Assembly: GCA_051294905.1 (NCBI GenBank)
Contig: CM119372.1
Coordinates: 17,982,001 to 18,046,000, forward strand
Direction: 5' to 3'
From: Botryllus schlosseri
Lineage: Eukaryota
DNA: 64,000 nt
Shown here: positions 10,280 to 41,767 of the stretch, one piece after another
Layout of the letters: every line of letters begins with the position of its first letter
How positions within the stretch are numbered: position 1 is the stretch's first letter
Translations under genes and position numbers: made by a program
The notes under the pieces: model-generated
The model's input: the letters and a program-made list of their open reading frames with translations, nothing else
Told to the model about the DNA's origin: nothing
The model's database searches: none

Positions 10280-12100
10280 TCATCTTCGGGCCTCGTCAAG
10301 CCGAATCCTTTCTTTATGTCGATAGCCTTCGGGAGTCAATGCGCAACTGGAAACGAAAATAATTCGGTTTCATGATTGACCGGAAATGCTCTCTGTAATA
10401 TTCCAGAACATTCTGCTCCAATTCGCAGTTTCCTGCTGTTACAAGACTCTGAATTCTAGGTTTAAGGCAAAATTTCATTTTGGTTTTATGAATACGAAAA
10501 TCAGTCCTATGAACTTAGACTAATTAAATCATTTAATCAGGTTTAATAATATTTTCATCGTTTCAAAACATCACAAGACTGCGATACAATGAAAAGATAG
10601 GAAGGTGTCGAAACAACTTGGAGTAGCCTTTAAGATCAGACACCCACCTTAGTCATTGCGAAGTAAATAAGAGGCACGCACACTGAATGAAAAGTAATGC
10701 AGAGAATATAAGAGTCATGTTGCTGTGTCGATTATTCAGAGCGAACATTTCGCGCTTCAATTGTAGACACTTCCAAGGAGTTTGGAGCCTTAAAAAGCGT
10801 AACGGGACCACTGACCAACCTGCATCCGATAACGTTTCTTAGATGATACGTTTCTTCGCCGATGATAAAAGGCATTATATAAGATATCTCGCGGACTTGA
10901 AAGTACATCCGACTAAGCTTTGCTTCCACGAGGGGCCTGGTGCACGATTGTTCGCATTGGATGAACTCGAAAGCCGATGGGGTCACACCTGCACATTCAA
11001 CTCTGAAATATCGATACGATTACTTAGTCACAATTAGTCATACGATCGCTTGGTCACTTAGTGGATTCCACATAGGGCCTACTTGAAGCATGACTGTCAC
11101 TCTAGACTGAAGTCTTCAATCCACAATGTGGATTCCACTAGCATTTTAGACCAAGTTATTTTTGACCAACCCTAATGTGGATTGTGGATGTAGTTAACCG
11201 TGCATATGTGCAGGTGACGCGATGCTTTCATGTCAAAATCTTGGTACGATATATAACACGATGGTGGACTAGGTTTCATCGCATCCGACAAATGCTACGA
11301 TGATAATGATATATATATATATATATATATATTTGAACGTTTTTTCTAGGGTCATTATCCTTTCGGTGTTGACCAATGTTCCCCTGCGCAGAGACCTAGT
11401 CAGCACTGCGCAATTGCACACGTGCGCAGCTTAGAGAGAACATTGGTGTTGACCATGACTATTCTATAGCACATAGTTAATGGTTATGCCGGTCCACGCT
11501 CATCCCATTTAATGCTCAATTGCTGTTTTGACTTGGTTTGTTCCCGTCATAAAGCGACAGCCAAAATGCGAAGGAAAAATGCAAACCAAGCTCACTGATA
11601 AGTGCAGTATCCAACAAACTCGCCGTGCTCACATTGCTTCTCTGTCAATTCGTGTCTCAGACCTTGAGACTCCACAAACCTAAAATTCAAAACTGTGTTC
11701 AGGTGTTCTCTGTTCAGTTCAGGTACAGCATAGTGTACTATACAGGACATTATGGTTACAGTGCAGCACGCAACAAGTGCTGTCGGTCGCTATTCATAGG
11801 ATTTGCAAAACTCCGAATCACGTTCGTGTCAGAGATTTGATCAGTAGAGAATTGGATCGGACAGTAGCATTTTTTTGATAAGTTCTCAATTAAGCCTCAA
11901 GCAATCAATAGGAATACATGCTCCCAGTACCTACCGAATAGATGGGGATGTGAAGTTATTCTCGCCGTGAATTCCATACGATCCAGGAATGGAACACGCA
12001 ACCCAAGCCATTATAAGGAGAGCCATAATCTGTGAATCATAAATGATTGTTCAAAAATATTGTCAATAGTGAATTAACAGCGATGACTTACCTTCATCAT
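10280..12100 (-). CDS. Secreted divergent IL-17-like cystine-knot protein, paralog A (145 aa, 5 exons)
   Basis: Exons 12100-12092, 12029-11935, 11679-11596, 11002-10820 and 10346-10280 are all GT-AG and phase-compatible. Protein: MMKIMALLIMAWVACSIPGSYG-IHGENNFTSPSIRFVESQGLRHELTEKQCEHGEFVGYCTYQVECAGVTPSAFEFIQCEQSCTRPLVEAKLSRMYFQVREISYIMPFIIGEETYHLRNVIGCSCALTPEGYRHKERIRLDEARR*. It has a signal peptide plus PS..xxxCxxxC and IGCSC motifs. The gene model is solid; the IL-17 assignment is motif-based inference. Confidence 0.8.
10560..10740 (-). mobile_element. LINE 3'-UTR fragment (same family as 3020-3750) in intron 4 of paralog A
   Basis: Reverse complement resembles 3580-3700 (TTCATTCAGTGTGC..GGTGGGTGTC..CTACTCC..TTTTCATTGTATCGCA). 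It is absent from the equivalent intron of paralog B. Another copy lies at about 55320-55515 (+). Confidence 0.6.
11374..11445. mobile_element. 72-bp hAT-type MITE in intron 3 of paralog A
   Basis: Ends CAATGTTC / GAACATTG, flanked by an exact 8-bp TSD GTGTTGAC. Confidence 0.8.
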
Positions 12101-12172
12101 TGTGCAAGACAGCTGTGGTTATGAAAGTAAAACTCGATTTGCTTATAATACGGCGAACATCCCGCATCCTCA

Positions 12173-12182
12173 TTTATATATA
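12173..12182 (-). promoter_or_regulatory. Putative TATA box of paralog A
   Basis: TATATATAAA on the minus strand about 75 bp upstream of the ATG. A similar TATATATAG occurs upstream of paralog B (about 26438-26446). Confidence 0.45.
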
Positions 12183-13239
12183 CGCCTGAATTCGATCCCG
12201 TTTCTTATGCAATATCTTACTCTGCATACTGCAGATTTTTTTCGGGTGCAGCTCCTGGGTATTCACCGATCCACATCTCGGTAATGGGGAATAACAGAAC
12301 GTAGGCGTCGTTTGCGGTTTTGCGTGAGCATCTACTATCGAGTCACGAAACTGTCAAAATGATGAAACTTTTTTGTGCGTTTCTCAAATGGTGTCTAATA
12401 CCTCTCAGAAAGAGATGGCGGAATTAGTATAGCTATAGATGTGTAGTAGGGTCTGCTATTGATACAAATCACCAAAATTACAATCACAATTACGATGAAT
12501 GAAATTCAGTAAAATCTAACTACAATCGAGAAACATGTAATAGACTGACACCCCTCGTCTACGTTGTCGCTATAGCTACCCGAAGCTCAGTTCCATTATA
12601 GTCCCGTCCCGGAGAAGAACCCTTTGCCGCAATTCCTGTTTGGCGATGATGGAATTTACCGTCGGCTCTCGCTTGAAAAGTATGCATGCGCTTGCACACG
12701 AATCGATCGCACCATTTCGACTGGTCGAAATGAAATACAAATGACCGTTATCAAAATGATATTGAGAAATCGTTGAGCCTATACCCGATTGTTGAAATTT
12801 TGACAATCTGTTTAAAACGCATTGTATATTGCAGTGCTTTTCAACCTGTGGGATGGTACGCACTTGTGCAGATGAAAAAGGGCAGTGCGAATGACAGACA
12901 CTGTGAGAATGAGTACGGATGAAATTGAGCATATTTTTTTACTTTTTCTAACGTGAAATAATTCAAATAAACTTAGTGGGATATTGAGTACCGTGGCTCC
13001 ATAAATTTTGTCGTTGCTACACATTTGTAAGAACTTGTTGCATGTACGATGCACTGACACTGACCGTAGCTTTTACAATAATTATGGATCGCACAAGCCA
13101 GAGTCAACTATATAGGCTAAACCATAAAGTTCGATAGAGCTAAAGGGCTTAACACACAGTTAGGACAGTGTATCATGAAGGTGACAAGCTCTAATGTTCC
13201 CACGTTGCTTGATATTTTTTTAATCTTATATTTTAGCCA

Positions 13240-13610
13240 TCAGGCAGAAGCATTGAAAGCAAAGTTGTGGGTTTTGCATCCCTTCCAGAATCCTCCGGAA
13301 CCTTTTGGCCACGCTGATAAAATGATTTCCATCAGCAAGCATTGTTCAATCGCGGAAAATATGCTGTATTTTGGTTATGAGTTCTGATAGTTCTACTAAA
13401 GACCAGACCATCGAACCACTAGAATTTCTTGTACAAAACCCCACAACTTATCTGGCCGAAACGGGCTTTAGTGCACTAGTTGACATGAACAGGAGTTGTA
13501 TACTTAGTGAGACACTTGATGGCCTAACGCTTTAGGGCGAGAAGCTGTGCCTAACTGGTCTGGAATTACCAGAAATATTTAGCAGCAACCGAGATATTGA
13601 TAAATCGGTA
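13240..13610 (+). mobile_element. Degenerate hAT (Buster/ZBED-type) transposase C-terminal remnant
   Basis: Reads LKAKLWVLHPFQ ... PTTYLAETGFSALVDM, resembling the hAT dimerisation motif FPTTYLCExGFS. Interrupted by stops and frameshifts. Confidence 0.55.
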
Positions 13611-13777
13611 ACCTATAGGCTACTTCTTCGACAATCGAACAGAAATGTGTCTAGTCTCTTCATTTTCCTTTTGTGCAATAATTTTCGGATGGTTTGTTTG
13701 GATGAATTTTTTTTTTGCAAAATAGAAAGTGTGGATGGTTTTCAAAAAGATGGAAAAGCACTGGTATTGCATATGTG

Positions 13778-14046
13778 CAGAGGTGGCCAAGATAGTAATC
13801 CTGAGTACTCAAATAGAAGTATAAGTAACGTTGTAAATATCTAATCAAAGAAGTAGAAGTAGCGATTTCCAATAAAGTAAAATGTAAGTATTCTATATAG
13901 TCCTTAGTTATGCATAAAAACTGAAAACTGTTAAATAGATTTAAAAGTAATATAAAATCATAACCATTTCAGTAAGTATTGTAAGTGAGAAAAATCGACT
14001 TGAATATTTCGAAAAAGTACAAGTACTTCATCACTGACCACCTCCG
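13778..14046. mobile_element. Short hAT MITE, CAGAGGTGG family
   Basis: Ends CAGAGGTGGCCA / TGACCACCTCCG, TSD CATATGTG/CATATGAG, AGTAGAAGTA subterminal repeats. Confidence 0.75.
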
Positions 14047-14504
14047 CATATGAGGGTGTGAATATCGTATCTGATTCGTTTTGACTTTCAGCAGTTCTCA
14101 ACCTTCATGAATTGCATGGAAACTTGTCGAAGAGCTTTTCCACTGCGAATCAATAAAATCGACGGCTGCTAAAATAAAACATAACCGAACTATTATTTGC
14201 CGTTACTCGTAACGGCAGCTCGCGATATCTGTATCAAGTTGATTGCTTATAGGCAATAGACGGAATGTTCAACTACTAGAAGCATTATTCATTACGGTTG
14301 AATTTATGTTCACTTTATCTTATTTTCATATGGCCCCTATACTTGAAACTGGCACCAATCGTTATTTCTCAATTCTTTATTCAACCAACTCTGGAATCTA
14401 GCGACATAGCTATCCGCTTGCGCTTGCACTATGTAAGCGTGGGTTGCAGCTAAAATGAAAATCGTTGGGGGCAAGAAATCGTCTTATATAAAGTTGGGTA
14501 ATGG

Positions 14505-15863
14505 CAGAGGTGGTCAAAGTAGTCAAGAAAGCTACTCAAGTAGAAGTAGAAGTAGCGACGAAAAAATCTACTCAAGTACGAGTAGAAGTACTTCTTCCAT
14601 AAGCAAGCTAAAACTACTTGAAGTAGAAGTAGAATTGACTGACTTTAAAAGTACTCAAGTAAGTAAGTAGTTGTGAAAACGATCCTAATTCGTTCACATG
14701 GATTGTAAAATGGTGCAAATTAAGCTAAGCGAAAGGTGACGAGCTTGATTCATATTGATGCATACCAGCAGGCATCCAATTTTCGATAGCATAAGCATTC
14801 GTCCACATCATGGGAAGAAAATGATAGAATTGATATGGAAATGCGATACTTATCCTCTGTTTTCTCGAACAGCACGTTTTAGAAAATAGCATGGTATGGC
14901 GCCATCCCCCATATTATGAAGTTCGTAGTTTAGTCGAAGAGCAATACGAAGAAGTTGTCTAGGATCCGGTGTAGACACTTTGCGCGATTAGTAAACGTTA
15001 AAAAATATGGTGGTGGTGGACCGTAAAAATGCGATATTGTGTAGCTTTATTTCCGGAAATTAAAGGCATTACTATACACTTGCTTTTATAGCCTACTTCA
15101 ACATGCATGTTATCCAGACAAAATAACTGATTTTAATTATAACTCAAAGTATATCATACTGGGAATTGAAAATGAAACATAAATTCTACTTCTAAAAGCG
15201 GAACACGTTTTTCATGCCTTTAGTCCAGAAAGTTTCAAAGGTGGTATGCTAAAACAGCTCTAAAAACTAACAAAAAAATTTCAGAGTCCACTTTGCCAGG
15301 TTAGGACGCACCATGAACATGCTAGATTACGATATGACAATTAAATGCTAGATTGCGAAACATCGGTATCAAACGTTTTGATGATCCGTATATACCGTGA
15401 TGAATTATTTCATATGGGCGAAGGGGGATAATGTGGTGTGGACGCAGGGATATCTAGATATGTAATTCTAGATATCCCTGTGTGAACGGAACCACGCCAA
15501 CCCGCTACCTAAAATATATTCATCGATACTTCCGTGAAATCATACTGGTAACTCCGCATATCCATCATTGCGCGCGAAGCACGACGAAAATTCTGGGCTT
15601 TACTCAATTTTTATGAAAATTAAATGTTGATACTCCGTGAAAACAGCCCCGAAATTCCTCAGGCTATCCTCCTGATTGAAAGATTGAACTACTTCTACTT
15701 GACAAACTGAAAATAGCGAAAAGTAAGTAAGTAGATCACCATATAATACGAAGTAGAAGTAGAAGTAGCGAAAATCAGATGTACTTGAGTAAGTACCAGA
15801 AGTAGAGGATAACTACTTGAGTACTTCGAAAAAGTAGAAGTACTTCGTTACTGACCACCTCTG
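14505..15863. mobile_element. 1.36-kb hAT non-autonomous element, CAGAGGTGGTCA family
   Basis: TIR CAGAGGTGGTCA / TGACCACCTCTG with an exact 8-bp TSD GGTAATGG. Homologous along its length to 39274-40580. Confidence 0.92.
15445..15480. mobile_element. 36-bp TIR-only micro-MITE
   Basis: CAGGGATATCTAGA-tatgtaat-TCTAGATATCCCTG with TSD TGTGGACG/TGTGAACG. Absent at the homologous position (about 40210) of the sister element. Confidence 0.8.
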
Positions 15864-18800
15864 GGTAATGGTTATATCGTGACGTAACAATAAAAAGGAC
15901 GTCACATATAAAAATAATTTTTCTCTCTCGTGAGGCCTTCTTATCCCAATCGTTATATTGTGTTCCAATGTGTTCATGAAACTGTTTAACTGTTTAAGGT
16001 TCAAGAGTCAAGAACCAAAATAAATGCAATCGTGAGTAATAGTGATTACTTTTACATGTAATCGCGATCGACTACATCGAGATTTTGTAGCAATCGTAAT
16101 CGCAATCGATTCCTTCATGTATAGGCCTACTAGCCATCACCCCATGTCTGATTGCTTACATTACAATATCTGCAGGACAGCGCTGAAAAACAATGTTTGT
16201 AACTACAACCTCCCCATCAGCTTTATTGAAAAGTTGCAATCCGATAGACAAAGAGCAATCCAACACGCTTTCACGATCATTTTACCACGGTCGGCTCAGG
16301 TTGGCACCAAACGGTCACTGATCGTACTAATTCAGTCTTTCACTGGCTCTTGACAACACTCAATTGTTTACGGTAAAGCTAAATTAATTCAAAATCGCGT
16401 ACGAAGTTCGGGCTTGGAATGCAGTTTCTACAGGTCAAGTGATGTGAATTTGTTGAGTATGAATGTGAACTTGACATGACGTGACGAAATTGTTGCACCG
16501 CAGATGTGTTGCATATGAATTTACCATTCTCAAGGAACCAATCGCTTCAAAATTTTTGCTGTCCGACACGGCATGACATTGTTTTCTAGCATTATCGGCA
16601 GCACTGTGATTCTCCCGCATATAATACACGCGTATCCTATAGGCCTACTGTTACAAATGTATGAAAATGCGGACATACGTAAATGTTCGGAATGATTGCT
16701 TGTTGCATAACCTACCATCACGTGCCATGCTAGACAGACATTGCTATGCGGTGGGGCAGTATGTTTCCACTACGTATATAGGCTACTCTACTGTAAACGC
16801 TCCTACGCAATATTGCAGTATACTCCTCTACATTCCAAAAATATAACAACGTACGTCTCGACTGCTGGTGGTAATGATAATGAAACAAACAATCGGATTT
16901 CGTCATCAATCTTATTTAACACCGTGTCGTATTCTCGTGAAATTGATCTGAAATTTGTCATGGCATCAATACATATGAAGAGAATATCTAAATATGTAAG
17001 TGGATCAAGTGTTTTCGAGGAGAGAACAACAAAATCTTCGGACTGATAGTGAGCAGTTCACTCCACTACCAAACCAAGTTCACGGACGCTGTGTCGTCAT
17101 CTTAGTCTGCGATCGCAAGCCATTGTAACGGTGGCATCGTTTCCTGCAACAACAAACCTTTGGAAAGAAAATAATTGCTTGGAACTTGTAATAACACTTT
17201 TAGCATCACAATGACGAATACTCAACAGTCAAATTCCCCATTTCATTCGCAATGACAATGATGCGTTCCAATCTCTATATAGTCGCAATGTGTAAAAGAT
17301 GGCGTAAACGTGAAGTGCACGTTCGCGTTCGGTGTGTGAACCTCAGATATTTGGATGTTCGTGTTCACAAACGAACCTTGGTAGGTTCTACGCAACTGTG
17401 AACCTTTTATAGAAAATACAATAATTTAAGTTACGTCAACACATCAACATCTTTGGTTGAAATCATTACCATTTCAACTTCGGGTCACTCTCGGCATGTC
17501 GATGGCGACATGGAGTGGATTTAGCACAAAAGTATAATGCACATTGTCAGTTTCAAACATTTTATTCGCCGTGTTAGAATTGTGTGATTGAAATATTCAT
17601 ATTTTCCGTTCGTAAATATTTAAGACACTCTTGGGTCATCGATGTTAGCTTGTACCGCAATAACACAATATCATGTGAATATTACAATACATGTAGGAAG
17701 CAGGTAATAAGCGAACTGCGCAGGTTGAATCAATCAATTGGCAATTCAACGAAATTGATGAGGAGAATGTATCGTTGTCTAAGGCAAAAAGTTGTGGTGC
17801 ATGTACGCATTCAGATATATCCCTCGAACTGGGGCAAAAGACGCATTACAATAATAGGCCTACTATATTCCCTTCGAAAATGACGAATATAATAGCGAAA
17901 CTTAAAACAATCAATCCGGATTGATGTTAGCTTCCACATGCAGGGTCCAGAATCCAAGCTTATATCCATCGATCGTAATAAATATGCACATTGCACATAG
18001 TCTTCTTGATACAATTGTACATCACAGCGCACCCTTTGTAAAGGTTCGTATTCACACGAACCATAACCTCTCAAGCCTTCCCACCATCCCTAATATGGTT
18101 ATGACTTCGATCATGATTTGTTCGGGCAAATATCGTAATAACTGTTCCACATTTGTATCAAACCCATATCTGAAATCACATCACACCTAATTCCACTTAG
18201 ATCAGTGGTTTTTGACCGGCGTTCCGTGGACTTCATGCCCAAACAATGGTTGTAAAGCTGCTCGAATATAGGCCGTAAAGATCTTCTTGGAGGTACACAA
18301 CTTTAATGTACAATTGAATGGTATATTCATATTGAAATAAACCCGAATAGTTTCGTCTGACACTCGCCAGGGGTCATCGTCAGTAACTTGAAATTTGGCA
18401 CGCTGCACACGAAAGGTTGCCGAGTGCCGACCCGTGGTATATACCATTTTTAAAATTAAAATGACGTTTCCTAATTTCTGAAAATGTTGAAAAATGGGGG
18501 TTTGTTTGAGGGTGGTATGGATTTCGAAGAGGGATACGGTGGATAAAAGGTTGGGAACTCCTGTTGTAAACAAACCAATTGCTCCGCAGGCTTATAGTAT
18601 ATCCGCTTCTATGGAGATATGGCGGTTTCGAGGCTTAGTTTTTTTGTTACGTAGTCAGATGCTGTCCACAGGTTAATTGGAGATTTTTAATCATTTGCGA
18701 CTTTTCACATCATATCCACCGCTCTATCACATCTGCAAGAAGCAATACGTTTTACCTGCAACCAGGCATTCACGAATGACCAGATGTGTCGTGCTTCATA

Positions 18801-19071
18801 TAGCAGCAGCAAATATTCAAATGAGAGATATGTAGTGTAGGTAACCTAACTGGCAGCCCGTCGCATGAATCAGAAGTAGCTCTTGGCTTCAGAAAGGTTG
18901 GCGACCACTGGTTACTATGTTCTTTCTATCGGCCTTACAGTTGCCGGAGTTGCCATTTGCGCCGAAGCTTCATACGTCTTGGTGTGTCCTGCGGCGGAAT
19001 TTATGGTCGGGTCCGAAATATCGGTGCCTAATAGCCTTGCAACAACAGGTTGCACGGCATACACCCTAGCG

Positions 19072-19482
19072 CAGTGGTTCCCAACGTGGGCGATTTTGAG
19101 AAAGAAGGGGGTCATATGGGGCGAAAATGTTATAGTTAGAACGTCAAGTGATATATATTCAATTAACCGCCAACCAGTCACGGAAAAATTTTGCTACGTG
19201 AAAAGTTGCTTATTCTGTAACTATCCCGAAAGTTGACTGAATAAAAGTGAAGTGGTCGTGGAAACCTGTTTTCCGAGCACCGTCTCGCAAATATTAATGA
19301 CCTTTTTTCTAGTCAATTCACCAGCGATCAGAGTCGAATGTATAAATTTCCTGTTTATATGTTCTCTTTTTTGGATCTCAAAATACTAATTTATTTATTT
19401 TTTATTTTTATTTTTTGTGGGAGCGAAAATTTGTGTCGAGCTTGATAAGTCGAAATGAGTGGAACAAAGTTGGGAACCACTG
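19072..19482. mobile_element. hAT MITE
   Basis: TIR CAGTGGTTCCCAAC / GTTGGGAACCACTG, TSD CCCTAGCG/CCCTAGCC. Confidence 0.85.
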
Positions 19483-19840
19483 CCCTAGCCTATGCATCCC
19501 AACAGCCTCAAACGAGACTAGAAATATACCGTTCGAAAACAGTTTGACGAACTTCTTCAAATGCGTATGCTTGATTCGTTTTTAATATTACTATTATTTC
19601 GCGAGATGTTATCTATAGTATATTAAAATAAAATAAAAACCATTGAGATGAAATCACGCACCGTGCGAAGAAGATCTTCGTTTCCCAGATTCTATTCGAC
19701 TTTTGTTCGTTTGTGAAATAATTTTGGGTTCTAGATAGCACATCGTATATAATTCCACAATACAGTTCGTACCCCCTGCTTTGAATATTCGTATTCTCAA
19801 AGAGTCCGCGGACCCCTGGTTAAGAATCCATGCCCTAGGG

Positions 19841-23674: not shown

Positions 23675-25104
23675 AATATATACGAGGCTTGTAAACTACA
23701 TTCTATTTGTGATATCATATGCAAATGTTTCTCTTAATAATTATGATATAACCTTTAGGAAAGATTCCTCTTGGAGTAGAACTCGGTTGAGTTAACATGT
23801 GTTTAACTTGCGACCTCTCTCTGCCTTTAGTGCAATATGCATGAATGCCATACATTAAAAGTTACAGTTTTCCAGCCTAGTTTGGTTTTGCTGCATATGG
23901 ACATAATGTTTATTTGCTGGAGCAATAGGATTGGATTATTAATACGCTCATTTCCCCCGCTTCAAAGTACATCGATATTTCTTGATCTAAAGAGTGAATA
24001 AATGTCACAAGGTCGATAAGTACAGCACCGCAACACGTCAGGAAGTCTGCCGAGGCGATGATAGCCGCAGTGACAATTGTTTCCTGTTCAGAACAATTAT
24101 GCGTCTAACTTAGTCCACTGCAGCTATATCTTTCGCAGAATACGCTTCTTGCATATCACGTTGATTTTCAGTGCATGTGTTTCAGGGTGTTAGCTATAGT
24201 CAGAGAGCGCGCATAATTATGCTGGGCGAGCCTGGTACAGATTTTGGTGAAGTAGCTCAGCAGTAGTGGTCCGGCGTGATCAGGCTGCTGTTGCGTTAGC
24301 GACAGGTCTATTGTGAGCGTTGTCTTGCTACAGACTTATTTTTATTTCCGAGCCTGGCGCACCTCCAAGTCGAAATTAATATTTTGACTATAGAATCTCA
24401 GTAAAACATCACTTGACAAGCAGCATAAATCTATTCATTTCAGATTTGTTCGAAATGGATGACAACTTCCAATGCATGATTGGTGTACAATGTCTTTAAT
24501 CAACTGCTATGTACGATGGAGTGGCGAAATTCGGTGACGGACCATCGCCTCATGAAGCTCAATACACAGTGCGCTTTCGACACGCTGATGAATGCAACTT
24601 TCTACCAAAGTGAAGGAAACTTGAGCGGAATTTTTTAGGAGGTGTGATACAGTTCAATATGGGCTTGGCTAGCAGCCAACAGAATTAAGAGTGCACGTAT
24701 ATTTACAGACTATACGGTCATTTTGAAGTTCTGACTCAGGTCTTATAACCGACGCTTTGCCAATAATGCCATCCCTATTCTATTCAATATAACCTATACT
24801 CGGAGTCTTGCCGTACCTTCAGTAGTAGTGACGTGGCGCAAGGGCGTTTCTAATAAATCAACGTTCTGGCGTGTAATTATCGTGTGAAATCACAAACTCA
24901 ACTTTGCCAAATCATGGTACGATGCCACATATTTACAAAACCCGCATATTAGTAAATATAACAATGTCAAACGGATAGGCCTATAGAGCAGAAAAATAGA
25001 CTTTATTGTGAAAATATTTTGGCTAAATTTTTAGATTAAGTAGAATGTGTGTAATAAATATTAAATATATAAATAATTTTGATATTTGGATCCCATCACT
25101 GTAG

Positions 25105-26328
25105 TCATCTTCGGGCCTTGGCAAGCAGCCGAACCCTTTCTTTGAGTCGATAGCCTTTGGGAGTCAATGCGCAACTGGAAATGAAAATAATTCGGTTTCA
25201 TGATTGACCTGAAATCGTCTCTGAAATATTCCAAAACATTCTGCTCCAACATGTAGTTTCCTATACTGGTACGAGACACTGAATTCTATATATACGGAAA
25301 AATTTCATGTCCTATGAACATGAACATAGACTAATTTGAGTCGTGTTGCTGTGCCGATTATTCATAACTAACATTTAGTACTTCAATTGTAGATAGGCCT
25401 ACTTGCAAGGAGTTTGTAGCTTTAAAAAAGCGTAACGTGACCAACCTGCATCCGATAACGTTTCTTAGATGATACGTTTCTTCGCCGATGAGAAAGGGCA
25501 TGATATAAGATATCTCGCGGACTTGAAAGTACATCCGTTTGAGAATTCTTTCCGTGAGGGGGCTGGTGCACCATTGTTCGCACTGGATGAACTCGAAAGC
25601 TGATGGTGTCACACCAGCACAGTCAACTCTGAAATATTGATACGATTACTTATAGTCACATTGAGGAATAAAGACTCTAGGGTAGAGTTAAAATCATGCT
25701 CCAAGTATGTGGATTGTGGACAGTAAGCCGTGCGCATGTTAAATTGTGCACTGTGCCGCGATGCTGTCATATCCAGATTTTAAGACGACACATTATCCAC
25801 GTCTGTTAGATTGATCAATGATCAATTATGGTTCATGAATTATGTTTCGGTCAATTGCTGTTTCGGCTTTGCCTATCCCTGTGATAAAGCGACGGTCAAA
25901 ATTCCAAGGAAAAAATTCAAACCAAGCTCACTGATAAGTGCAGTGTCGAACGAACTCGCCGTGCTCACATTCCTTTTGTGTCAATTCGCATCTCAGACCT
26001 TGGGACTCCACAAACCTAAAATTCGAAATAGCCCATGGAAAACTGTATTTACGCCTTCACTGTTTAGCTCAATTACAGTGCAATACATTGCCAGGGGTTC
26101 TCAACCAAACAATTGGAATGTATGCTTGCACCTCGTGTAGCATAACTCACAGTATAGGCTACCTACCGAATAGATGGGGACGTGAAGTTTTTTTCTTCGT
26201 TAATTCCATATGCTCCAGTGGAACACGCAACCCAAGTCATTATTACGAGAGCCATAATCTGTAAATCGTGAATGGTAGTTCAAAGCATAGTAAATAGTCA
26301 ATTAACGGCGATGACTTACCTCCATCAT
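25105..26328 (-). CDS. Secreted divergent IL-17-like cystine-knot protein, paralog B (145 aa, 5 exons)
   Basis: Exons 26328-26320, 26258-26167, 26015-25932, 25628-25446 and 25174-25105 are GT-AG with the same phases as paralog A. Protein: MMEIMALVIMTWVACSTGAYG-INEEKNFTSPSIRFVESQGLRCELTQKECEHGEFVRHCTYQVDCAGVTPSAFEFIQCEQWCTSPLTERILKRMYFQVREISYIMPFLIGEETYHLRNVIGCSCALTPKGYRLKERVRLLAKARR*. Indels relative to A preserve the frame. Confidence 0.8.
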
Positions 26329-27984
26329 TGTGCAAGACGACGGTTGTTACGAAGCTACAGTAAAGATATCGATAAGATAGCGGATCGGAAAGTAAAACTC
26401 GATTTATTTATAATACGGTGAACAACCCGCATCCACACTATATATACGCCGAAATTCGATCCCGTTTCTCGCGCAACATCTATATTCTGCATACTGCAAT
26501 TTTTTTCTGGTGCAGCTCCTGGGTATTCACCGATCCACATCTCGGTAATGGGGAATAACAGAACGTAGGCGTTGTGTGCAGTTGTACGTGCGTGTCTACT
26601 CCAGGTATGACGTTATACGTCGTTTCGAACGAACCAATTTCAAGTTATGAATCGTGTACAATTACAATATATACATTATGCAATGTATATTCACAGAATC
26701 CATGACAATTTCGCTAGTCACATAAAGCACCACAGCGATGCGAACATTTGACTCTCTGCATATATCATATGATATTCACCTTCATATGAATTGATGCTTT
26801 GCTAATAAAATACATCGTTATAAATATTGGTGAGGATATTTTCTATCAGATGGCCGAATCAACTGGAGGAGTATGCGTGACATCGACAGTCGACACCTTC
26901 ACGCTTATAATTCATATTGCGGGTTGAAGGCATCTCAGCAACAGCATTAGCAAGAATGAGCATTGAGCAATGACCAATTGAGCAATGAGCATGGATGTTG
27001 AATGAGCGCGATGAGTGCTAACACTATTGAGCTGCTTTTATGCGATATAACTTCATGTTGAAAAGAATCTCTGAGCTCGACATCGTCTCTTACCGGTCAG
27101 TAATCAGTTATAAACTCTTATGGTCAGAACCGCTTTGTCAACAATGTGGTTATTTATGCTGATTACATTCGACAAGCTTGATTCGATGCGTACGACGTGA
27201 TAATGATTCGTTTTTGAATCGTTGATTCGTTTTGAACATCCTTAGTGATAATTTTCCGAAGCTTTCATTTGCGTATAGCGAAACTGTTGCCAGAATAAAA
27301 AAATAGGATGGAGAATTTTTTCAAAATATGGCGAGACGACACAGATCCATTCTAACTTAATCCTTGTAAATGATGTCACAATGAAAATGTTGAAGATTTG
27401 GACGGGGATAGGCGTCTTTCTACTGTCGGGCAATGTGTTATTATGCTAGCTATTAGTTAGTCAATCATGTAGAAACAAATCGGATAATTCACTTAATCAA
27501 ATATGTCGTCATCTCCTGTTTTTTCTTCTTCTAATTTTGAAGGCTACCATACCGCAAGGAATTGTTAAATGATGACACATTTAACGCCATGCACTCCCCC
27601 CAAAAATGAATATTGTTTTGACCAAATACAGGTATATTTCTGAAAGGTTTGATTAAAATTCGTTTTAATGCTGTCCGTGTACATTTAACTACGTCAGGGG
27701 TCCAACCTTTTTTGACCAAAGGTTCACTCGCGGTTTACGGCTACATACGGGCGCTTGATTGTTGACGACCCTTTTTATTCATCGGGAAGATTTTTAGGAA
27801 TCAATTGACAATATGGCCGTGGAGAGGGGGAAAGTGATGACCTCCCTTTTGTTCATCAGCAATATCATCATCCAAAATATTGCTTGGGGCTGCAAAAGTT
27901 ATAGTGAATGAATTCGGCCAATGATATTGGTACGCAATCCATTGGTGTTTCTGCTGGAGATCATACCACTACGCTATCTCCTCA

Positions 27985-31445: not shown

Positions 31446-31693
31446 GTCTATGTTATACTCTTGACTCTTGAGTATCATCTCGGGAGGATATGGGGAAATG
31501 CTCGAACGTTCATTTATCGTGTCTGGAATGATTGTCTGTGCGTTTTTGTTGAAGCATGTTTGGCGGTCGGATACGTTATGCCTGTCGTGTGTTCGAACTT
31601 TGATTTCAAATTACGCATTGAGTTGTAATGTGAAATATAATTTTATCTTCGTGTTATACTTGTTTGTCCTGATATGGGGTGGTAAGGGATGGT

Positions 31694-32342: not shown

Positions 32343-33085
32343 TCTCGGGGTATCAATCACTTCTGAGATCATTACTGTCCGACACGGCATTGTCCGCAGC
32401 ATTGTGTTTTCCCGCATCTAATACACGCGTATTTTAAAAACGTATGAATACACTGACATACGTAAACATTCGGAATGATTGCTTGTTGCATAACCTACCG
32501 TCATGTTCCATGCTAGATAGATAGATATTGTTATGTGGCGATGCAGTATATTCCAGTCACCAACGCTTCCGGTGCGTTAATGTGTACGCTCCTACGCAAT
32601 ATTACAATATACTCCTTTGCATTCCAAAAATATAACAACATCATACGTCTAGACCCGCGGTCGTGAAAATGTAGAAACAGGCAAGCACATTTCGTCATCA
32701 TTCTTATTTTATAATGTGTCGAGTGCTCGTGAAATTGAACTAAAAAGACGAAGAGAATATCTAAATATACCGGTAGATCACGTGTTTTCAAACGCCGAGG
32801 AGAATATCTAAATATACAATACATGTGTATTGTGTAGCGATTGTTGATATACAATGTTCTTTCCAATTCTCTACCTGTTACTGATGATTACACCTGACGA
32901 GTGACAGCAGAAAATATTCGGGTAATTTCAATATGAATACACTATTCAATTGTATATTGAAGTTATGTACCTCCAAGAAGCTCTTCAAATATACATGCAG
33001 ATCACGTGTTTTCAAAACCTTCGGACTGATTGCGAGCTTTTCACTCTACTTATCAAGCTCAAGGACCGTAGTGATTGAGTACGTC

Positions 33086-34038
33086 CAGTGGTCGGGAACC
33101 TATGGCTCGCGAGCCATATATGGCTCTTCTGGGTATTAGATATGGCTCTTTAACAAATTTTTAATTTTGTAAAAAATTATCAATATTGTAGCAACTTGTT
33201 AGTAAATTTTGATTACCCCCGGGATAATTATTTTCGTGGCATCCCAAACATGTCCTTGAGAGGTCAAGAGAGTGGGGTGTCCAGGGTTAGGATCTCGCAT
33301 CCCCCTTTTCAAAATTCTCGAATATTTAAGTTGCTGTCGCGCCGGCGACTAACATCACTCGCGAATTCGATCTACCCGACATCGCGCTCCTCGAAATTTT
33401 GGATTGCACGATACCTTGATTGATCAGAGAGAATAGCAAACCTGGAGATGCTTGTATCACACAGCAGTTTTCATATACACATTTCCTTCCTGATCCACGC
33501 CGAGAAATGGACTGCCTTGGAAGCGACATTCACAATTAAAAATTGAAATTAAAAACAGCGCTACAGCTAGCCATATTCTTGATTGGTAAGTAGCTTTCTT
33601 GTTATCGCCGTTAAAATGTAGGTGTGTAGCATAACATTGTGTTAGCTGAATACTGGAGAAGTCGCGACAATAAAATTCGATTAATGCTGATCACAAATTC
33701 TAAGCTATTTACGATGAGTTGCGCTATCACAGGGCTTGGCTATCGGAGTGAAAATGTTCAAAATCTAGTCATTCATTAACATTGATAGAAAATACCAATA
33801 ATAATCATTGAAGGTTTCAATGTATTTACTGCAGTAGTGACAATGTTTAGCTCTACCTACGCATGTGAGCAGAGAAAATATGGCGCACCCTACGAATTCC
33901 ATGTATTGGCGCTACCAATACGTCACGGTTTTTCAATTGTGACGTAACAGTCGATTGATATTTATGGCTCTTTGGGAGTTACATTTGAAAATATTGGGTC
34001 AATATGGCTCTTCGGTCGAAAAAGGTTGCCGACCCTTG
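33086..34038 (+). mobile_element. hAT (Charlie-like) deletion derivative
   Basis: Ends CAGTGGTCGGGAACCT / AGGTTGCCGACCCTTG, subterminal ATGGCTC repeats, and an internal remnant VVTMFSSTYACEQ (hAT dimerisation motif) at about 33835-33872. Confidence 0.7.
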
Positions 34039-34339
34039 TCTTAGTCTGTAATCAAAAGCCATATCAACGGTGGCACATTTTCCCCGAATTTCAATCCCTT
34101 TGGATCGAAAATAATTGCTTGTAATAACATTTCTCATCACAAAGACGAATACTTCCTCATTTCATTCGCAAAGACAATGATGCGTTCCAATTTCTATAAT
34201 TGTAAACTGTAAAAACCGATTCGTTGTGATCGAATCTCGCAGTGCAGTAGGCCTACTATCTTTATGGCGTTTTATGATAATTACGTCGATAATGATTTGT
34301 CATTTGCGTTGAAATAAGATTCTCGAATTCCACGAAGAA

Positions 34340-35465
34340 AGCTGCTCAAGTAGAAGTTGAAGTAGTGACGCTAAAATCTACTCAAGTACGAGTAGAAGTA
34401 GTACTTTTTAGAGCATCCTAAAACTACTTCAAATAGAAGTATAAGTAGCGGCGCTAAAATGAACTCCAGTAAATAAGTAGTTGTGAGAAGTAGTCATAAG
34501 TACCCTCTCATGGGCTATCAAAAGCTGGAAAATGAGCCCTGCGGACTGTGCAGAGAGCTGGGTTCGTGCTGCTATATACTAAGAGGGACAAAGTCTCCAA
34601 ATAAGAATTGGACCGCTTCAGGGGATGTGAATGATAGTTTTGCTTTGGAACAGTGGTTCTTGACTTTTTTTTACCCCATACCCCATATCAGATAATGTCA
34701 TGGAATGGTGCCCTCCGCCGTATTAGAAGGCCCATAGTTGAAGCGAGAAGCATTACGGAGTTGTATCAGACACTGCATTAACGATTTGCGCGGTTATTGT
34801 CTGCTAGCCAAAAATATGGTAGATGGTAAATGAGACATTTACATTTAATTTTACTTCCGGAGGGAAAAGGCAACAGTGCACTTAATTTTGAACTTCTATA
34901 CGTACATGCGCTCCGGACAAAAGGACTCAGATAAATTAGAAGATCTCTTTGTAACGATACCGTGCATAAAGAGAAATACAACTATAATCTTTGAAAAGAG
35001 GGAATATATTTCTTGTATTTTGTCCAGACAGTTTCAACGGTGGTTGACGCTCAATGGGCTAGCTAGCGCTTAAAAGTCAAGTACCACTTTTTCCTCATCT
35101 GAACACACCCTGTGCGGTTAGAATGCTAGGTTACGATAAGATAGTTAGAGGTCAGCTTACGATACGATAGTCCCAACAAACATTTCTGAGCCATACTGAC
35201 TGTGATGAAACGTGTCATGTGGGTTGCAATACGGTGTGAAAGGAACCACACAACCCGCCACTCAAAATTATATTGGCCGATACTTCAGTGAAAGACACTT
35301 TCCATAAATTTTGTGATAGTTAAATTATTGTGAAAGTAAGAAGGTAAGTCACAAAATACGACGAAGTAGAAGTAGCGCAAAATGAGATCGACTTGAGTAA
35401 GTACTAAAAGACGATAAAGATTACTTGAGTACTTCGAAAAAGTATTCTTTACTGACCACCTTTGG
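34340..35465. mobile_element. Degenerate copy of the CAGAGGTGGTCA-family hAT element
   Basis: AGTAGAAGTA repeats at both ends, right end ACTGACCACCTTTG, and internal similarity to 14505-15863. Confidence 0.6.
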
Positions 35466-36014
35466 CCACATGTCATGCTCTGATGATGATGTTTAGTATG
35501 CATGGTATTTCGACATGGTTATTTTACAATGGTGATCTTATTATGATTCCTGAATGCCATCTTATCGCAGGGCCCACTTTCGGCCTAGGCATTGTTTGTA
35601 TTATGGTGTTGGACTTTGTTATGGACTAACTAAATTATGTCTGCATATCGTTATTTTCTTGCTGTGTACCGGAAAAAGTAATTCACGGCGGTCTCGCCAG
35701 GCCGTCCGCTAAATCGGCAAGAACCGAATTTGAAAGTTCTGCGCGAGCTGACAGCGAAATGCTGTCATGTAGGTTTGAAACCTAAAGAACAATAAAAGTG
35801 TATGCATGATCGATTGAACAGCAAAGAAAGAAAAGAAACAAGCAGATATCCTGTAAATCCTAATCTGTTGGGTTAAACAACAGAAACTTTCGAGTATCTC
35901 ATATACCCAATAAATTCTAAAAAATTATAAATGCAACTTTTTACTGCAACATTTGTTAAAATTAAGTGCAACTTTCTCATGATTTCAGACCGATATTCTG
36001 TATTTTGATTCCGT

Positions 36015-36170
36015 AGCTGCTGGCTTATAGCACGGCCCGCTTCCAGGTACGGAGGAGCCTAGATAAACCTCCAACACATGGGAAGGCATTCTGGCGTCGA
36101 CTCCGGTTGGAATCGAACTCGCGACCTATTGCAGCTGTGGACAATATATACCACTATACTCTATTTCGTC
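36015..36170 (-). mobile_element. tRNA-derived SINE (related to 29747-29892)
   Basis: GACGA start, TAGTGG A-box remnant, B-box GAGTTCGATTCC, and the shared body GTCGAC.CCAGAAT.CCTTC...GTGTTG.AGG. Confidence 0.65.
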
Positions 36171-36647
36171 ATTCAACAGCACTTGTGATACATGCAATCA
36201 TCGTGATTTGATATGTGTTCGTTATCCTTTTTCATGTCATTACCGCGATAAAAATATTATGAACTTCAATTATTTCAATAAATTATGCCATAATTAACAT
36301 TCCAGTCTTTGTTTATTAAAAGTAAAATTATGAGGAAGGCCGATTGAGCTCTTCTGCCTTCAAAATGTTAAAATTAAGAAGGCTGAAGTACAGGCAGTAT
36401 ATCGTATCATTTTCGATTGAAGGTTTATTGCTATTTGTGATACCATTGCAGATGTCACAGCAATCGGATGAAGGTTATATAACGCGCAGCTACGGCATTA
36501 ATGGTAATAAATATAATCATAGTTGCAATCGACATGGACCAACAAAAAACATGACAATCGAGAAATGGGATTAAAGCATCAAAAGAACTTTTTTGACCGA
36601 CTTCGTATTTATATGTGATGTGTCATAGCACACTACTCGTTGACGGA

Positions 36648-36650
<3 letters not shown>

Positions 36651-36678
<28 letters not shown>

Positions 36679-36820
36679 GTTAGATTATATTTTCATCTGC
36701 CCAAGACACACACACACAATGTACAATGCGATATACAAGGCACACAATGCGATGTAATGAACAGATAGGGGGTTGCCGAACGACCAACCAGTTGAGCTTT
36801 TTCGAACTGGCATCCACCTC
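36651..36820 (-). mobile_element. Probable LINE/SINE 3' tail ending in a (GATT)n microsatellite
   Basis: (AATC)7 at 36651-36678 adjoining a 3'-UTR-like segment. Confidence 0.4.
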
Positions 36821-37544
36821 GACCTAGTGCCCGATGTCACAGTCTTCTACGATGTTATTCTTTCTTCGTCGGTCCTTTTTTTCTTGCTCTTTTTCTTTCT
36901 TTTTCGGTTCATCTTTTTCTAATCCAGTAACTCCCCCGATGGTATCGAATTAATCATTATGACACACTTCTGTTTTTGGGTATCAATGTAATTCAAAATA
37001 AAAGCGGTCTTTCCCGTGAACTACAGGTTTATGTCACAATAGAAAGTATATGGCAATGTGCGAAATACTCGCCCTTCAAACTTAATTTGATACCTGTGAG
37101 TTTCCTCTCAAAACCGCCACGAAAAACGTTTTTATGCTTGCTCATTTAAACTTCATTTCCACAGATTTAGATGTAGCCTTATCAGAAACCAAAACTATAT
37201 ATGCAATGTAACTAATATATATTTAGCAGTCGTTTATAGATTAGAGGCTTTTCTTCACTGTTCGAGCGCGTTTATTTCACCATCATACTACAGATAGAGT
37301 TATCCAAAAACATATCAGTGCACCGGACGTACGGAAAAGGCGGTGCTTGACAAGACAGTCAATTTTCGGAGAGAAACTGTAGCCTTTGGCGTAGCAGAAG
37401 ATACATCAACAAACTTGCCGAAAATAACGAAATAAATTAAGACACAAGTCAAAATCAGGACAAATCAGAGAAATAAAGACAGTATAGTTTTATCAGACAT
37501 CGCCACTCAAAATGATCTGAGTAAACAGGATGTAGGGTATAGTG

Positions 37545-40500
37545 TTAGGGCGGAGTCTTCTTTTTCCGCACTCTTGTTCGTCGCTTTGGAAGTGTCCGGG
37601 ACCGTGCCCGGTGTCCCCTTTTCGTCAATGCACAGCTTTTCAAGAATAAAAGATGTTTAATTATCCAAACTGCCTCGACTCACTATAGTAATTCAAAAAA
37701 ATTCGTACAGTAACTAGTATTGAAATGATAAAAATGATATAAGATACCTTACAACGCATAATAAACATGATAGTTAAGGTTGCGTTCAAAACAAGTGGTT
37801 TTTTAAAACACTTTGTTTAAAACATGTTTTAAACAGTGTTTTAAACAAAGACCTTTTTAAAAAAAATTGAGTTTTTTCAAGTTGTAAAATTATGCCATAA
37901 TCGTGTATATACTTTACAAAGAACATGTTTTATGAGCCTGCGAACAATTACCACCCGATATATAGTCGACGCAAACGATATGGGATGGTCGGAACCCTTA
38001 AAATAGTTGGTTCGACAGCTATAATACGCAGATATGTCGTCAAAGGAGATATAGTTACTCTATATTTTCAATTGTCGATGTCAATCCACAATGACGTCAC
38101 AATTGAATATCCGTGACGCCATGGCTTAAAAAAAGCAATAAAAACATGTTTTAAACAAGGGCCTTGTTTCAAACAGGTTTATCTTAAATTGGTTTTTGTT
38201 TTAAATGCAACCCTATTGATAGTTCATTGATCAGTCATTATAACTCTGTTCAATTGATGGTTGAGCTTGTTTTTGCTCGGACAATCGCTAGTTTGGTTAG
38301 TAGAAAAAGCCAGTGGCATGTCATGTCAAATATCCAAGACACTGCACTGCTTTGTCTTCAGAAGTAATATTGTTGAAAACCTACATTCACACACAACGAT
38401 ATGTTGATGGGAAAGGCAATAGAAACGGCTCATCTTTCTTTTAGCACAAATTATAGAAAAAAATCAATATCAATAGATCTGAATGTAAAACGAAATAAGT
38501 AAACTGAATATCAAGAATAGCTTATGCTGTATTGGTAGTATTAGATTTTTTGAATTATCTTTGCTAAAATGGAGTAGAATGAAAGATAATGATATTTCAT
38601 ACCGCACGCTGAAAAAAGGCTCATGACCCCCAGGTTGTGAACCCCGTTGTGAACAAATCAATTGTCGTACAAGCTTATACTATAGCCGCTGCTATGGATA
38701 TATGACGGTTTCGTGACTGTGTTTCACGCACGTTAATCGGGAGATCTATAATCATTTGCGACCTTCATCACCAGATCTGTTATGTTCGTGCATTTACGTT
38801 TTAGTGTCGTACAACTCTTTCTTTCTATAGGATTAGTAATTACCGCCAATCATTATTTCCTCGTGTGTCGTGCTTGTATTTATACCCTTTGTGTTCTGTT
38901 CTCTATCGTCTTTCGTTTACCAGTACTCTAGATCGTGTCGCTGTCTCAAGTTGTTCTGCTGATAACATACTGATTTCATATTGCAACCTCGTCGTATGAG
39001 TTATTGTTCAAAAGAAGATCCACGCTCCATCACATCTGCTAAAAAGCTACGTTTCACCTGCAGCCAACAGTAATTTTCCCTGTCGTTGTCTTGTCGGAGC
39101 GCAGACCAAACGTCTCGTATACGAATGTTTCATCAACTTGATAATATTTTCTTGGCATTTTCTTCAGGGTCATAGGATCGTGACAAGAACGGCTGCATTC
39201 TGCATAGCTGAATATGGACGGCGTGATGTCTTTGCAAACAGCACTGTAAGTTAAAGGAAAGGATTATGATTATCAGAGGTGGTCAAAGTAGTCAAGAAAG
39301 CTACTAAAGTAGAAGTAGAAGTAGCGACGAAAAAAGTATACTCAAGTACGAGTAGAAGTACTTCTTCCATAAGTCATATAAAACTACTTGTAGTAGAAGT
39401 AGAATTGACTGACATTAAGTCTACTCAAGTAAGTAAGTAGTTTTGGAAATAGTCGTAATTCATTCGCATGGACTGTCACAAGCTGCAAATTGAGCTATGC
39501 GGAAGGTGCAGAGAGCTTGATTCGTATTAATGCATCCCAGGAGTTATTAATTTTCGACAGAATAAGCGTTCTTTCGCATCATGGGATGCGAATTATGGCA
39601 TTGATATGAAAATGCCAGTCCAACCCTTTGTTTACTAGAAGACCCCGTTTTAGAGAAGACCATGGCATGGCGACCTACCCCATATTATGAGGCTTCAAAT
39701 TTAGGCGAAGAGCAATACGGAGAAGTTGTATCGGATACGGTTTCAACGCTTTGCGCGATTAGTACACGTTAAAAACAAATATTGTGGATCGTAAAAGTTA
39801 TATTTGATGTAGCTTTATTTTCGGAAAATAGAGGCATTGCTACACATGTTTTTATGCTTCAACATGTATGTTCTGCAGACAAAAAACTGAATGTAATTAG
39901 AACTCAAAGTATGATACTCGGAATTGAAAATGAAATACAAATGCCACTTCTAAAAAGCTGAAAATATACAAATACCACTTCTAAAAAGCTGAAAATATAT
40001 TTCATGTCTTTTGTCGGTAAAGCTTCAAAGGGGATCTGCTAAAACAGGTGTAACGTTAAAAAATCCGTATTTTCCAGATCGGCAGGACACGTCATGGGCT
40101 GCTAGATTTCGAAATGATAGGTAATTGCTAGATTGCGAAACGGTAGTTTCGAACGTTATGGTGGGCCATATTTACTGTGATGAAATATTTGATATGGGCG
40201 ACAATGCGGTGTGAGCGGAAGCAAGCAATCCGGTACCTAAATTTTATTCACTAATACTTTCGTGAAAACATTTATGTCACACCATGATTACTGTGCGCGA
40301 AGCGCAGCAACATTTCTGGGCTTTACTTGACGTTTATGAACATTAAATGTTGGTACTCCGTGAAAACAGCCCCGAAATTCCTCAGGCTATCTTTGGTATT
40401 GGGGGATTAGACTACTTCTACTTGACAAACTGAAAATAGCGAAAAGTAAGTAAGTAAATGTCAAAATATTACGAAGTAGAAGTAGAGAAAATCAGATCTA

Positions 40501-41767
40501 CTTGAGTATGTTTCAGAAGTAGAGGAAAACTACTTGAGTACTTCCAAAAAGTAGAAGTACTTCGTTGCAGACCACCTCTGATGATTATAGCGTTGGCGAA
40601 TAGGGGTTGGTCGTATCATGCGCAGCATACGAAGCATGCAGTAGGCCTACATTCGCCACGTTCGTTGGTGGATATCACATAGGCCTATTTATGACGTCGT
40701 GATCAATTCACAGTATTGTCACAAGGTGCAATGAAAAAGGTATGGCAGAAAAATACCAAAGAAGGTTTATGTGATCGAACGGGCATTCTATTTTTGTGGC
40801 CGCATAAAAATTACATATTTGAACTTTTCACATACGTTTCTGACGTCACAACGAGTGATACTCGACTCGAAGCCTCGATTCAGAATCGAATCACTCAGGT
40901 TCTCGATTTTGCCCGCAGTCCTATTGGCGACCATGACGTACAGACATGGATGTAATTCAAACGCATAATTCCATATACCCTTCGCTGTTTATACACAGTC
41001 ATCACTTGTATCCGTACATATACATACTTGGATGACGAATACCCAATACCCAATAGGATAGTCAATGGAATTTGCTGAATTTCGTCAGATACCGATATGC
41101 ACATCTTTTCACGAAGAAGTCATCGCTGCAGCCATCTTTTATGTAATCACATACCACGCCTTTATCGCGGAGCATCTGTCTAAATTCAAGTGTGGTGAAA
41201 TTGTTGCGATACAAGTACCCGACATCATTGCTTCGGGGAACTTTAGGGCTCGGATCTGAGACTTTTGAGCGGGACTTATCGCACGCCCCGTTTACACACA
41301 CATCCACAAACCCTCATTGCAACGCTATCTTGGAATATTAATTTTCGTATACACCCGTGATGGCGAAAGGAAGTAAAATCACTGTCATTGATTAGTTGAG
41401 AATATACCTATGTATTTCACTGCTAACCCCGTTTATATCGCAAAATGATGTATCAGTTACTGATCCCACCACAGATGAATATTTTCTGTAGTTCTGATCC
41501 GAATCCATAGAACGAGGGCCTGATCAATCCAAATCTCACCTGATTCTGGATTTCGCAAAACATTTTCTTCTGATCGTCAGGACAGCAAATACCAACTGCA
41601 GAACGAATTATATGCATTTGTCATCACAAGCATCTCCAGATATTCAAGATTTCAGTTTCCGGTAAAATAAACTCAGGTTTGTATTACATATATAACAGAT
41701 TATCATAGTTTCCTATTCGAATTTAGGCAACTGTACTCACGTATATGAAATGGAAACGCATTTTCAT
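37545..41767 (-). CDS. Secreted divergent IL-17-like cystine-knot protein, paralog C (148 aa, 5 exons, basic tail)
   Basis: Exons 41767-41741, 41595-41540, 41179-41093, 39243-39058 and 37635-37545 are GT-AG with the same intron phases (0,2,2,2) as A and B. Protein: MKMRFHFIYLVFAVLTIRRKCFA-KSRIRQMLRDKGVVCDYIKDGCSDDFFVKRCAYRAVCKDITPSIFSYAECSRSCHDPMTLKKMPRKYYQVDETFVYETFGLRSDKTTTGKITVGCSCALTKRGHRARSRTLPKRRTRVRKKKTPP*. Its Cys pattern aligns with A and B. Confidence 0.78.
38778..39015. mobile_element. Probable solo LTR in intron 4 of paralog C
   Basis: 238-bp insert starting TGTT and flanked by a 5-bp TSD AGATC. It is absent from the homologous segment at about 18715. The 3' end reads AAGA rather than AACA. 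Confidence 0.55.
39274..40580. mobile_element. 1.3-kb hAT non-autonomous element, CAGAGGTGGTCA family, in intron 3 of paralog C
   Basis: TIR CAGAGGTGGTC / GACCACCTCTG with an exact 8-bp TSD ATGATTAT. Confidence 0.92.

Follow-up and report, generated by a model that had tools for sequence, protein, structure and literature searches.

Introduction

Interleukin 17 (IL-17) is described, in a 2024 survey, as the only interleukin family common to vertebrates and invertebrates, and its T2 disulfide type, which the survey gives as the sole type in tunicates and vertebrates, leaves two strands of the fold unbound (PMC11087794); the tunicate sequences in the survey's Dataset S1 are four, all from Ciona. 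Expansions of the family are already known in marine invertebrates (PMC8353272), which limits the surprise of finding another. Here we describe three minus-strand genes, A, B and C, in a stretch of 64,000 nucleotides from Botryllus schlosseri (GenBank assembly GCA_051294905.1, contig CM119372.1, positions 17,982,001 to 18,046,000 of the forward strand; this whole stretch is the window, and positions within it are counted from its first letter). Based on spliced gene models, profile comparisons and predicted folds, we propose, with a probability of about 0.6, that A, B and C are intact members of an IL-17-derived subfamily that is old and has expanded on its own. Their products, likely secreted, are predicted to take up the cystine-knot fold of IL-17 and, when induced, would likely work as dimers through the genome's IL-17-type (SEFIR) receptors. 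IL-17 ancestry of the subfamily, taken by itself, is very probable.

Three intact genes in the window

Once their exons are spliced by coordinates, A, B and C each form a stop-free coding sequence on the minus strand, with GT-AG borders at 12 of 12 introns: gene A runs from 12100 to 10280 (145 aa), gene B from 26328 to 25105 (145 aa) and gene C from 41767 to 37545 (148 aa). A first-pass annotation, made from the letters of the window, had drawn three genes of five exons each, with exons of 9-186 bp and identical intron phases, and splicing bears this out (phases 0,2,2,2 in all three); it likewise confirms that the terminal CxC is split, the last intron interrupting the codon between the two cysteines. 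The features, all on the minus strand, are as follows.

12092..12100, minus: gene A exon 1, start codon, 9 bp coding, phase 0 (from splicing)
11935..12029, minus: gene A exon 2, hydrophobic stretch resembling a signal peptide, with a single N-glycosylation sequon
11596..11679, minus: gene A exon 3, His44 at the position of the paralogs' first Cys; C51, C60
10820..11002, minus: gene A exon 4, C66 where IL-17 has the Asp of DxxR; knot cysteines 2, 3, 5
10280..10346, minus: gene A exon 5, knot cysteine 6, tail, stop
10174..10179, minus: AATAAA downstream of gene A
26320..26328, minus: gene B exon 1, 9 bp coding, phase 0
26167..26258, minus: gene B exon 2, signal-like stretch
25932..26015, minus: gene B exon 3, C43, C50, C59
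25446..25628, minus: gene B exon 4, C65; knot cysteines 2, 3, 5
25105..25174, minus: gene B exon 5, knot cysteine 6, basic tail, stop
25002..25007, minus: AATAAA downstream of gene B
41741..41767, minus: gene C exon 1, 27 bp coding, phase 0
41540..41595, minus: gene C exon 2, signal-like stretch
41093..41179, minus: gene C exon 3, C38, C45, C54
39058..39243, minus: gene C exon 4, C60; knot cysteines 2, 3, 5; its lone model resembles IL-17
37545..37635, minus: gene C exon 5, knot cysteine 6; tail bearing 13 Lys/Arg but free of acidic residues; stop
37271..37276, minus: AATAAA downstream of gene C

The AATAAA signals lie 97-268 nt past the stop codons; ATTTA counts in the 400-nt 3' flanks (4, 6 and 1) had no control and were not used. 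Each protein begins with a hydrophobic stretch, whose best 11-residue Kyte-Doolittle mean within the first 25 residues is 2.45-2.76, against at most 1.37 outside the N-terminus; the signal cleavage site is least clear in gene C. The C-terminal tails are basic, with 8 Lys/Arg in gene B and the 13 listed above in gene C. A and B are identical at 118 of 144 aligned residues and are thus recent duplicates, and their duplication reaches past the genes (8610-12336 and 23919-26600, in blocks of 73-86% identity). Gene C shares about 33% identity with A and B in exon 4. A six-frame scan of the window found no fourth copy.

A dispersed subfamily

The 495-Mb assembly was searched with exon 4 of genes A and C, with three paralogs and with the tail of the Pfam IL17 profile, and regions of it were scanned locally by profile. 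This search gave at least 19 subfamily loci over five contigs: four on C2 (A, B, C and L070), two on C5, one each on C8 and C10, and eleven on C12, where eight members form a tandem cluster (C12:9726776-9785919; L009-L012, L023-L024). The count is a lower bound in which most gene models outside the window are incomplete, and the weak matches L078, L083, L084, L094 and L095 are not included in it. The annotation had spoken of a cluster of three; the three genes are real, but the size of the family was underestimated, and paralogs elsewhere carry an SPW-like motif that bridges to canonical IL-17s. Sixteen loci were aligned, leaving out two C5 copies found later and one C12 copy (at 9774204), whose knot exon is interrupted and resumes about 1.4 kb further on. 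Two full-length members are intronless (L006, 1420-1845, minus strand; L070, 1477-1950, minus strand) and are possibly retrocopies; they would be the most convenient members for expression.

A profile of the 13 paralog rows from outside the window scores A, B and C at 40.5, 37.3 and 56.0 bits, respectively, and 200 shuffles of each reach at most 11.6 bits, so the match of the window genes to the family is not due to chance. The only relative found outside this assembly is P0001, a protein in another assembly that is 74% identical to the paralog L052 over 90 residues and looks like its ortholog. In the protein database searches, which depend on shared 5-residue words and whose negatives do not show absence, L006 alone gave 0 of 9 candidates and the family alignment 1 of 460.

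Kinship to IL-17 in sequence and predicted fold

When the 16-member family profile was compared with 177,635 Protein Data Bank (PDB) sequences, three matches were obtained, all of them IL-17F (E 0.0017-0.0019), in alignments that pair SPW, PS, CxxxxC and VGCxC. When the family was compared by hhalign with a profile of 21 IL-17 last exons of this genome, the probability was 90% and the E 1.5e-6. Kinship to IL-17 was found at the profile level by both routes. Pfam IL17 itself matches 4 of the 16 aligned members at E<=10 (best E 1.5e-4). L006 reaches 13.4 bits over the whole profile, and P0001, from the other assembly, 21 bits. At E<=10 the Pfam profile matches none of the three window exon 4 pieces, just as the first-pass annotation had warned that profile searches could easily miss these genes. 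In the ESM Atlas, 23 of 30 hits of L006 belong to the IL17 set, with a top score of 0.92 (recognition 2243; tool mark 2300). Gene C exon 4 alone gave no usable hit there, and L006 alone gave nothing in the PDB sequence search. A galectin returned by a PDB search with an 8-row alignment (E 0.94) was rejected as chance. Weak Pfam rows for RAP, DUF1573, DUF7313, RECK-like and TSSC4 were also rejected, each being given by single members far below the cut-off.

The predicted folds point the same way. The AlphaFold2 model of L006 (model confidence, pLDDT, 81.9) has strands at 33-41 and 48-55 between C33 and C55, which fits a hairpin closed by a C33-C55 pair. All of its Foldseek matches among those listed are IL-17 (E 0.001-0.004). 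The comparison of IL-17 with NGF, spaetzle and Torso-ligand folds that had been proposed as a check was run with the VIA fold search and placed this paralog closest to IL-17: IL-17A at Z 8.3, IL-25 at Z 8.0 and 6wio_C at Z 7.9 (an entry titled only as a Fab antigen complex, whose length and residue range led us to count it as IL-17), against 5.5 for NGF, 5.4 for the Torso-ligand entry and 3.8 for spaetzle. Gene C exon 4, modelled alone (pLDDT 90.2), has only IL-17 among its listed Foldseek matches (E 0.26-1.2, TMq up to 0.81), the best being IL-17F (TMq 0.79, root-mean-square deviation 1.8, E 0.26). Profile, language-model and fold evidence together support the derivation from IL-17 first suggested by the motifs, with the proviso that most of these lines rest on the same alignment and are not fully independent.

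The genome also has canonical IL-17s, with at least 24 loci passing the cut-off of Pfam IL17. Of 25 loci inspected, 24 have an RxP Arg codon that starts with AG behind a pyrimidine tract, and for 16 the 1.5-kb flank contains an SPW exon upstream whose end falls at this Arg. Many of these canonical copies (L026-L041, in clusters on C2 and C16) have extra cysteines of their own: two sit in the strand 3-4 loop, and another often stands three residues past the SPW Trp. An unrooted tree of 16 subfamily and 21 canonical rows over 72 columns, from which four near-duplicate canonical loci were left out, splits the two groups at 99/98. The subfamily rows begin ahead of the canonical ones, which may sharpen the split, and having no outgroup, the tree shows the split and not its direction.

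A rival account starts from Trunk/PTTH, NGF or spaetzle: a different cystine-knot lineage would have lost knot cysteines 1 and 4 on its own, its likeness to IL-17 being convergent. A degenerate tunicate Trunk is conceivable, given that no family is closer to IL-17 than Trunk, which is reported only up to amphioxus (PMC11087794); moreover, the lower ESM Atlas rows (0.86-0.88) include NGF and spaetzle clusters, and the unrooted tree contains no Trunk sequences. Yet the PDB profile search gives only IL-17F, the Z gap to NGF and the Torso-ligand entry is about 3, knot position 4 has no Cys in most members, and L052 has a literal SPW with the Trp-to-Pro and Pro-to-Cys spacings of 12 and 8 seen in the genome's IL-17s. 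We therefore regard convergence as highly improbable and derivation from IL-17 as the better account.

Cysteines and motifs

The window genes have a chordate-type core, made of knot cysteines 2, 3, 5 and 6 with the terminal CxC. Neither they nor 14 of the 16 aligned members have a Cys between knot cysteines 3 and 5, and the residues that can be read at knot position 1 are Val, Ala or Ser. What sets the subfamily apart is an anchor Cys at the Asp of DxxR, present in 16 of 16 aligned members, 7 residues after the SPW Trp and 5 before the conserved Pro. A second Cys lies 19-24 residues upstream of it in every member whose upstream part was found (four single-exon cores, 4 of 10 intron-bearing paralogs searched, both C5 copies, and genes B and C), except gene A. 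Such a pair, an upstream Cys and one at the DxxR position, is absent from the five IL-17 disulfide types described in PMC11087794. At the level of gene structure, an AG acceptor stands exactly 7 nt ahead of the anchor Cys in 13 of 13 subfamily loci examined, and a phase-2 GT donor follows knot cysteine 5 in six of seven C12 copies and in the C10 copy, although one of the six could also read through.

Two further cysteines, 7 and 16 residues after the first N-terminal Cys position, occur in the window genes. Whereas the first extra pair is family-wide, this second one was seen only in these three genes. The annotation had given the N-terminal spacing as Cx7Cx8Cx5C; the actual spacing is Cx6Cx8Cx5C (43, 50, 59, 65 in B; 38, 45, 54, 60 in C). 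Its N-terminal four-Cys module stands for B and C but not for A, in which His44 replaces the first Cys. Outside the window, the SPW motif is literal in L052, the paralog with canonical spacings, and degenerate (AP followed by an aromatic residue or His) in eight other paralogs.

Evidence weighing against the proposal

Several observations count against the reading of A, B and C as active IL-17-derived cytokines. As the annotation had stated and the spliced sequences confirm, SPW and DxxR are missing from the window genes, and so is the SVPI serine, only the Phe ahead of SPW remaining; loss of motifs by some IL-17s is, however, on record (PMC4517768). The subfamily intron positions differ from those of canonical IL-17s, lying six codons earlier than the RxP intron. 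No scanned member was shown above the curated cut-off of Pfam PF06083 (24 bits), which is a detection threshold and not a biological criterion. A profile of canonical IL-17 last exons does not separate A and B from shuffles (18 and 27 of about 190 score as high), so that their link to IL-17 is transitive, through the paralogs. Protein relatives of the window genes numbered 0 among 207 candidates (three exon 4 pieces, longer lengths), a search that needs shared 5-residue words and whose negatives do not show absence. Neither the L006 model nor that of gene C exon 4 gave a Foldseek row at E<=0.001, and the fold evidence covers these two models, in which the disulfides are putative.

Transcripts weigh on the same side. 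No spliced read or exon-shaped coverage was seen for A and B in four runs (X1, X2, X16, X20), nor for C in four (X1, X18, X21, X14), and exons 1-3 of gene C were at zero depth in all four of the latter. Spliced transcripts, which the annotation had named as a check, thus failed to appear in seven distinct, shallowly read runs (raw runs read at 3-13%; joints listed, 15 of 19 for A and B and 15 of 25 for C), and among the runs listed as containing the sequence none is recorded as RNA. A contig of X1 (depth 5) lies on gene A exon 4, with three differences that are gene B letters; it was not counted as expression, because the depth of X1 is similar over introns and intergenic DNA. Intronic repeats account for the high read depth within the genes, which was likewise not taken as expression. 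A 1.4-kb repeat, with copies 74% identical, lies at 14505-15880, between A and B, and at 39274-40593, in intron 3 of gene C; a related piece is found at 34335-35044, and the repeat draws many reads from elsewhere in the genome. Finally, the ratio of nonsynonymous to synonymous change (dN/dS) between A and B is 0.54 with p=0.06, by which purifying selection is not established.

These last results would also fit window copies that are intact-looking but silent or decaying duplicates, the working members being elsewhere. Besides the absence of transcripts in the seven runs and the dN/dS value, gene A lacks a family-wide Cys, and one C12 copy has an interrupted exon 4. However, three reading frames and 12 splice pairs are intact despite gene C being only about 33% identical to A and B, the A/B differences affect 16.5% of synonymous and 9.3% of nonsynonymous sites, and both A/B length differences preserve the frame. 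Moreover, cytokines are often near zero at resting expression. We consider silent duplicates quite improbable and retain the view that the genes are intact and probably inducible. A precedent for such induction exists in the same genus of colonial ascidians, a Botryllus IL-17 being induced 60-fold in allogeneic resorption (PMC8398012).

Proposed mode of action

According to the model that we favor, the chain would be secreted and keep the two chordate knot disulfides, 2-5 and 3-6. The family-wide Cys at the DxxR Asp would pair with the Cys about 22 residues upstream, stapling an added N-terminal strand to strand 1; this staple would sit in a fold that has no 1-4 disulfide. In the window genes, a nested second pair (C50-C59 in B) may lock the hairpin and replace the SPW motif. 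Gene A has seven mature cysteines, one of which is possibly free for an inter-chain bond. IL-17s are dimeric, and dimers are presumed likewise for the subfamily. The strongly basic tails of B and C suggest retention of the proteins on sulphated surfaces. Expression would probably be inducible or limited to few cells. The remodelled N-terminal surface probably selects receptor chains different from those of canonical IL-17s.

Receptor use and an immune role are inferred from the IL-17 family, whose members bind double-FN3 SEFIR receptors and signal through CIKS. The genome has nine SEFIR matches, which may include the adaptor CIKS. Four of the nine lie within 65 kb (C11:17024601-17089295) and are candidate expanded IL-17 receptors. 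The proteins could instead be IL-17-derived and expressed but stand outside the IL-17 receptor pathway, either using another receptor (e.g. an FN3-containing tyrosine kinase) in development, or serving as decoys or heterodimer partners that damp canonical IL-17s. The loss of SPW and DxxR, the added hairpin, the basic tails and the long branch to canonical IL-17s would all suit such a role, and arthropod IL-17-like ligands switch between IL-17R and Torso, as PMC11087794 reports. Since the knot core superposes better on IL-17 than on the Torso-ligand entry, and nine SEFIR matches leave room for private receptors, we judge this rather unlikely and keep signalling through SEFIR receptors as the preferred reading. 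A more far-reaching version of it, which we put forward only tentatively, is that sea squirts possess a second IL-17 lineage, almost canonical in size and with its own receptors, in which a new N-terminal staple replaces the lost third knot disulfide, making a sixth structural type; the window genes would be its double-stapled branch, with the second staple in place of SPW.

If the subfamily is active, the tunicate IL-17 repertoire would be nearly twice the Pfam count in this genome (19 hidden loci against at least 24 found), the closest invertebrate relatives of vertebrates would offer a natural way to re-stabilise an incomplete knot, and there would be named ligands to try on several orphan SEFIR receptors in injury and allorecognition. 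A literature search, mostly without subscription papers, found no description of such an IL-17 subfamily.

Other features of the window and genome

At 48357-49015 (minus strand) of the window, Pfam Glutaminase is matched, one part after the other, by two frames that overlap (E 7e-6 and 1e-20). No intron separates them, and the locus is likely a processed pseudogene with a frameshift, or a fragment. The frames at 45293-45616 (minus) and 3014-3421 (plus) have no Pfam match at E<=0.01; they resemble a GIY-YIG retroelement endonuclease and a retrotransposon tail, respectively. Elsewhere in the genome, three matches to the GH6 cellulase family with flanking introns (L098, L099; C9:15.02-15.07 Mb) lie on a chromosome-scale contig. 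GH6 in animals is known as a tunicate trait, and these matches are consistent with a tunicate genome.

Comparison with known systems

Trunk/PTTH, NGF and spaetzle are secreted and share the cystine-knot topology (Z 5.4 for the Torso-ligand entry, 5.5 for NGF and 3.8 for spaetzle). However, they have a full three-disulfide knot, according to PMC11087794 and PMC4517768, whereas the subfamily is without cysteines 1 and 4, and the Z of the L006 model for NGF and the Torso-ligand entry is about 3 units below that for IL-17.

The likeness to vertebrate IL-17A/F and IL-25 (PDB 8dyf, 3jvf, 8ruu, 7uwj; PF06083) is closer. It comprises the predicted four-strand cystine-knot core, the four knot cysteines with no Cys at positions 1 and 4, the terminal CxC, the Trp-to-Pro spacing of 12 and Pro-to-Cys spacing of 8, a signal-like N-terminus and a length of about 140-150 aa. 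Identity in structural alignments is 17-28%, and the differences are clear: the strand 3-4 hairpin of the subfamily is shorter, a Cys with an upstream partner Cys takes the place of the DxxR Asp, CxxxC is mostly found instead of CxxxxC, and the window genes have no SPW and a second extra Cys pair.

Closest to home are the T2-type tunicate IL-17s, namely Ciona IL-17-1, -2, -3 and -D (PMC11087794) and the at least 24 canonical copies of this genome. The subfamily shares with them a knot restricted to the 2/5 and 3/6 disulfides, the arrangement in tandem clusters and the C-x-[DN]-P after knot cysteine 3. The canonical copies here encode their CxC within one exon, whereas in the subfamily an intron often lies inside it.

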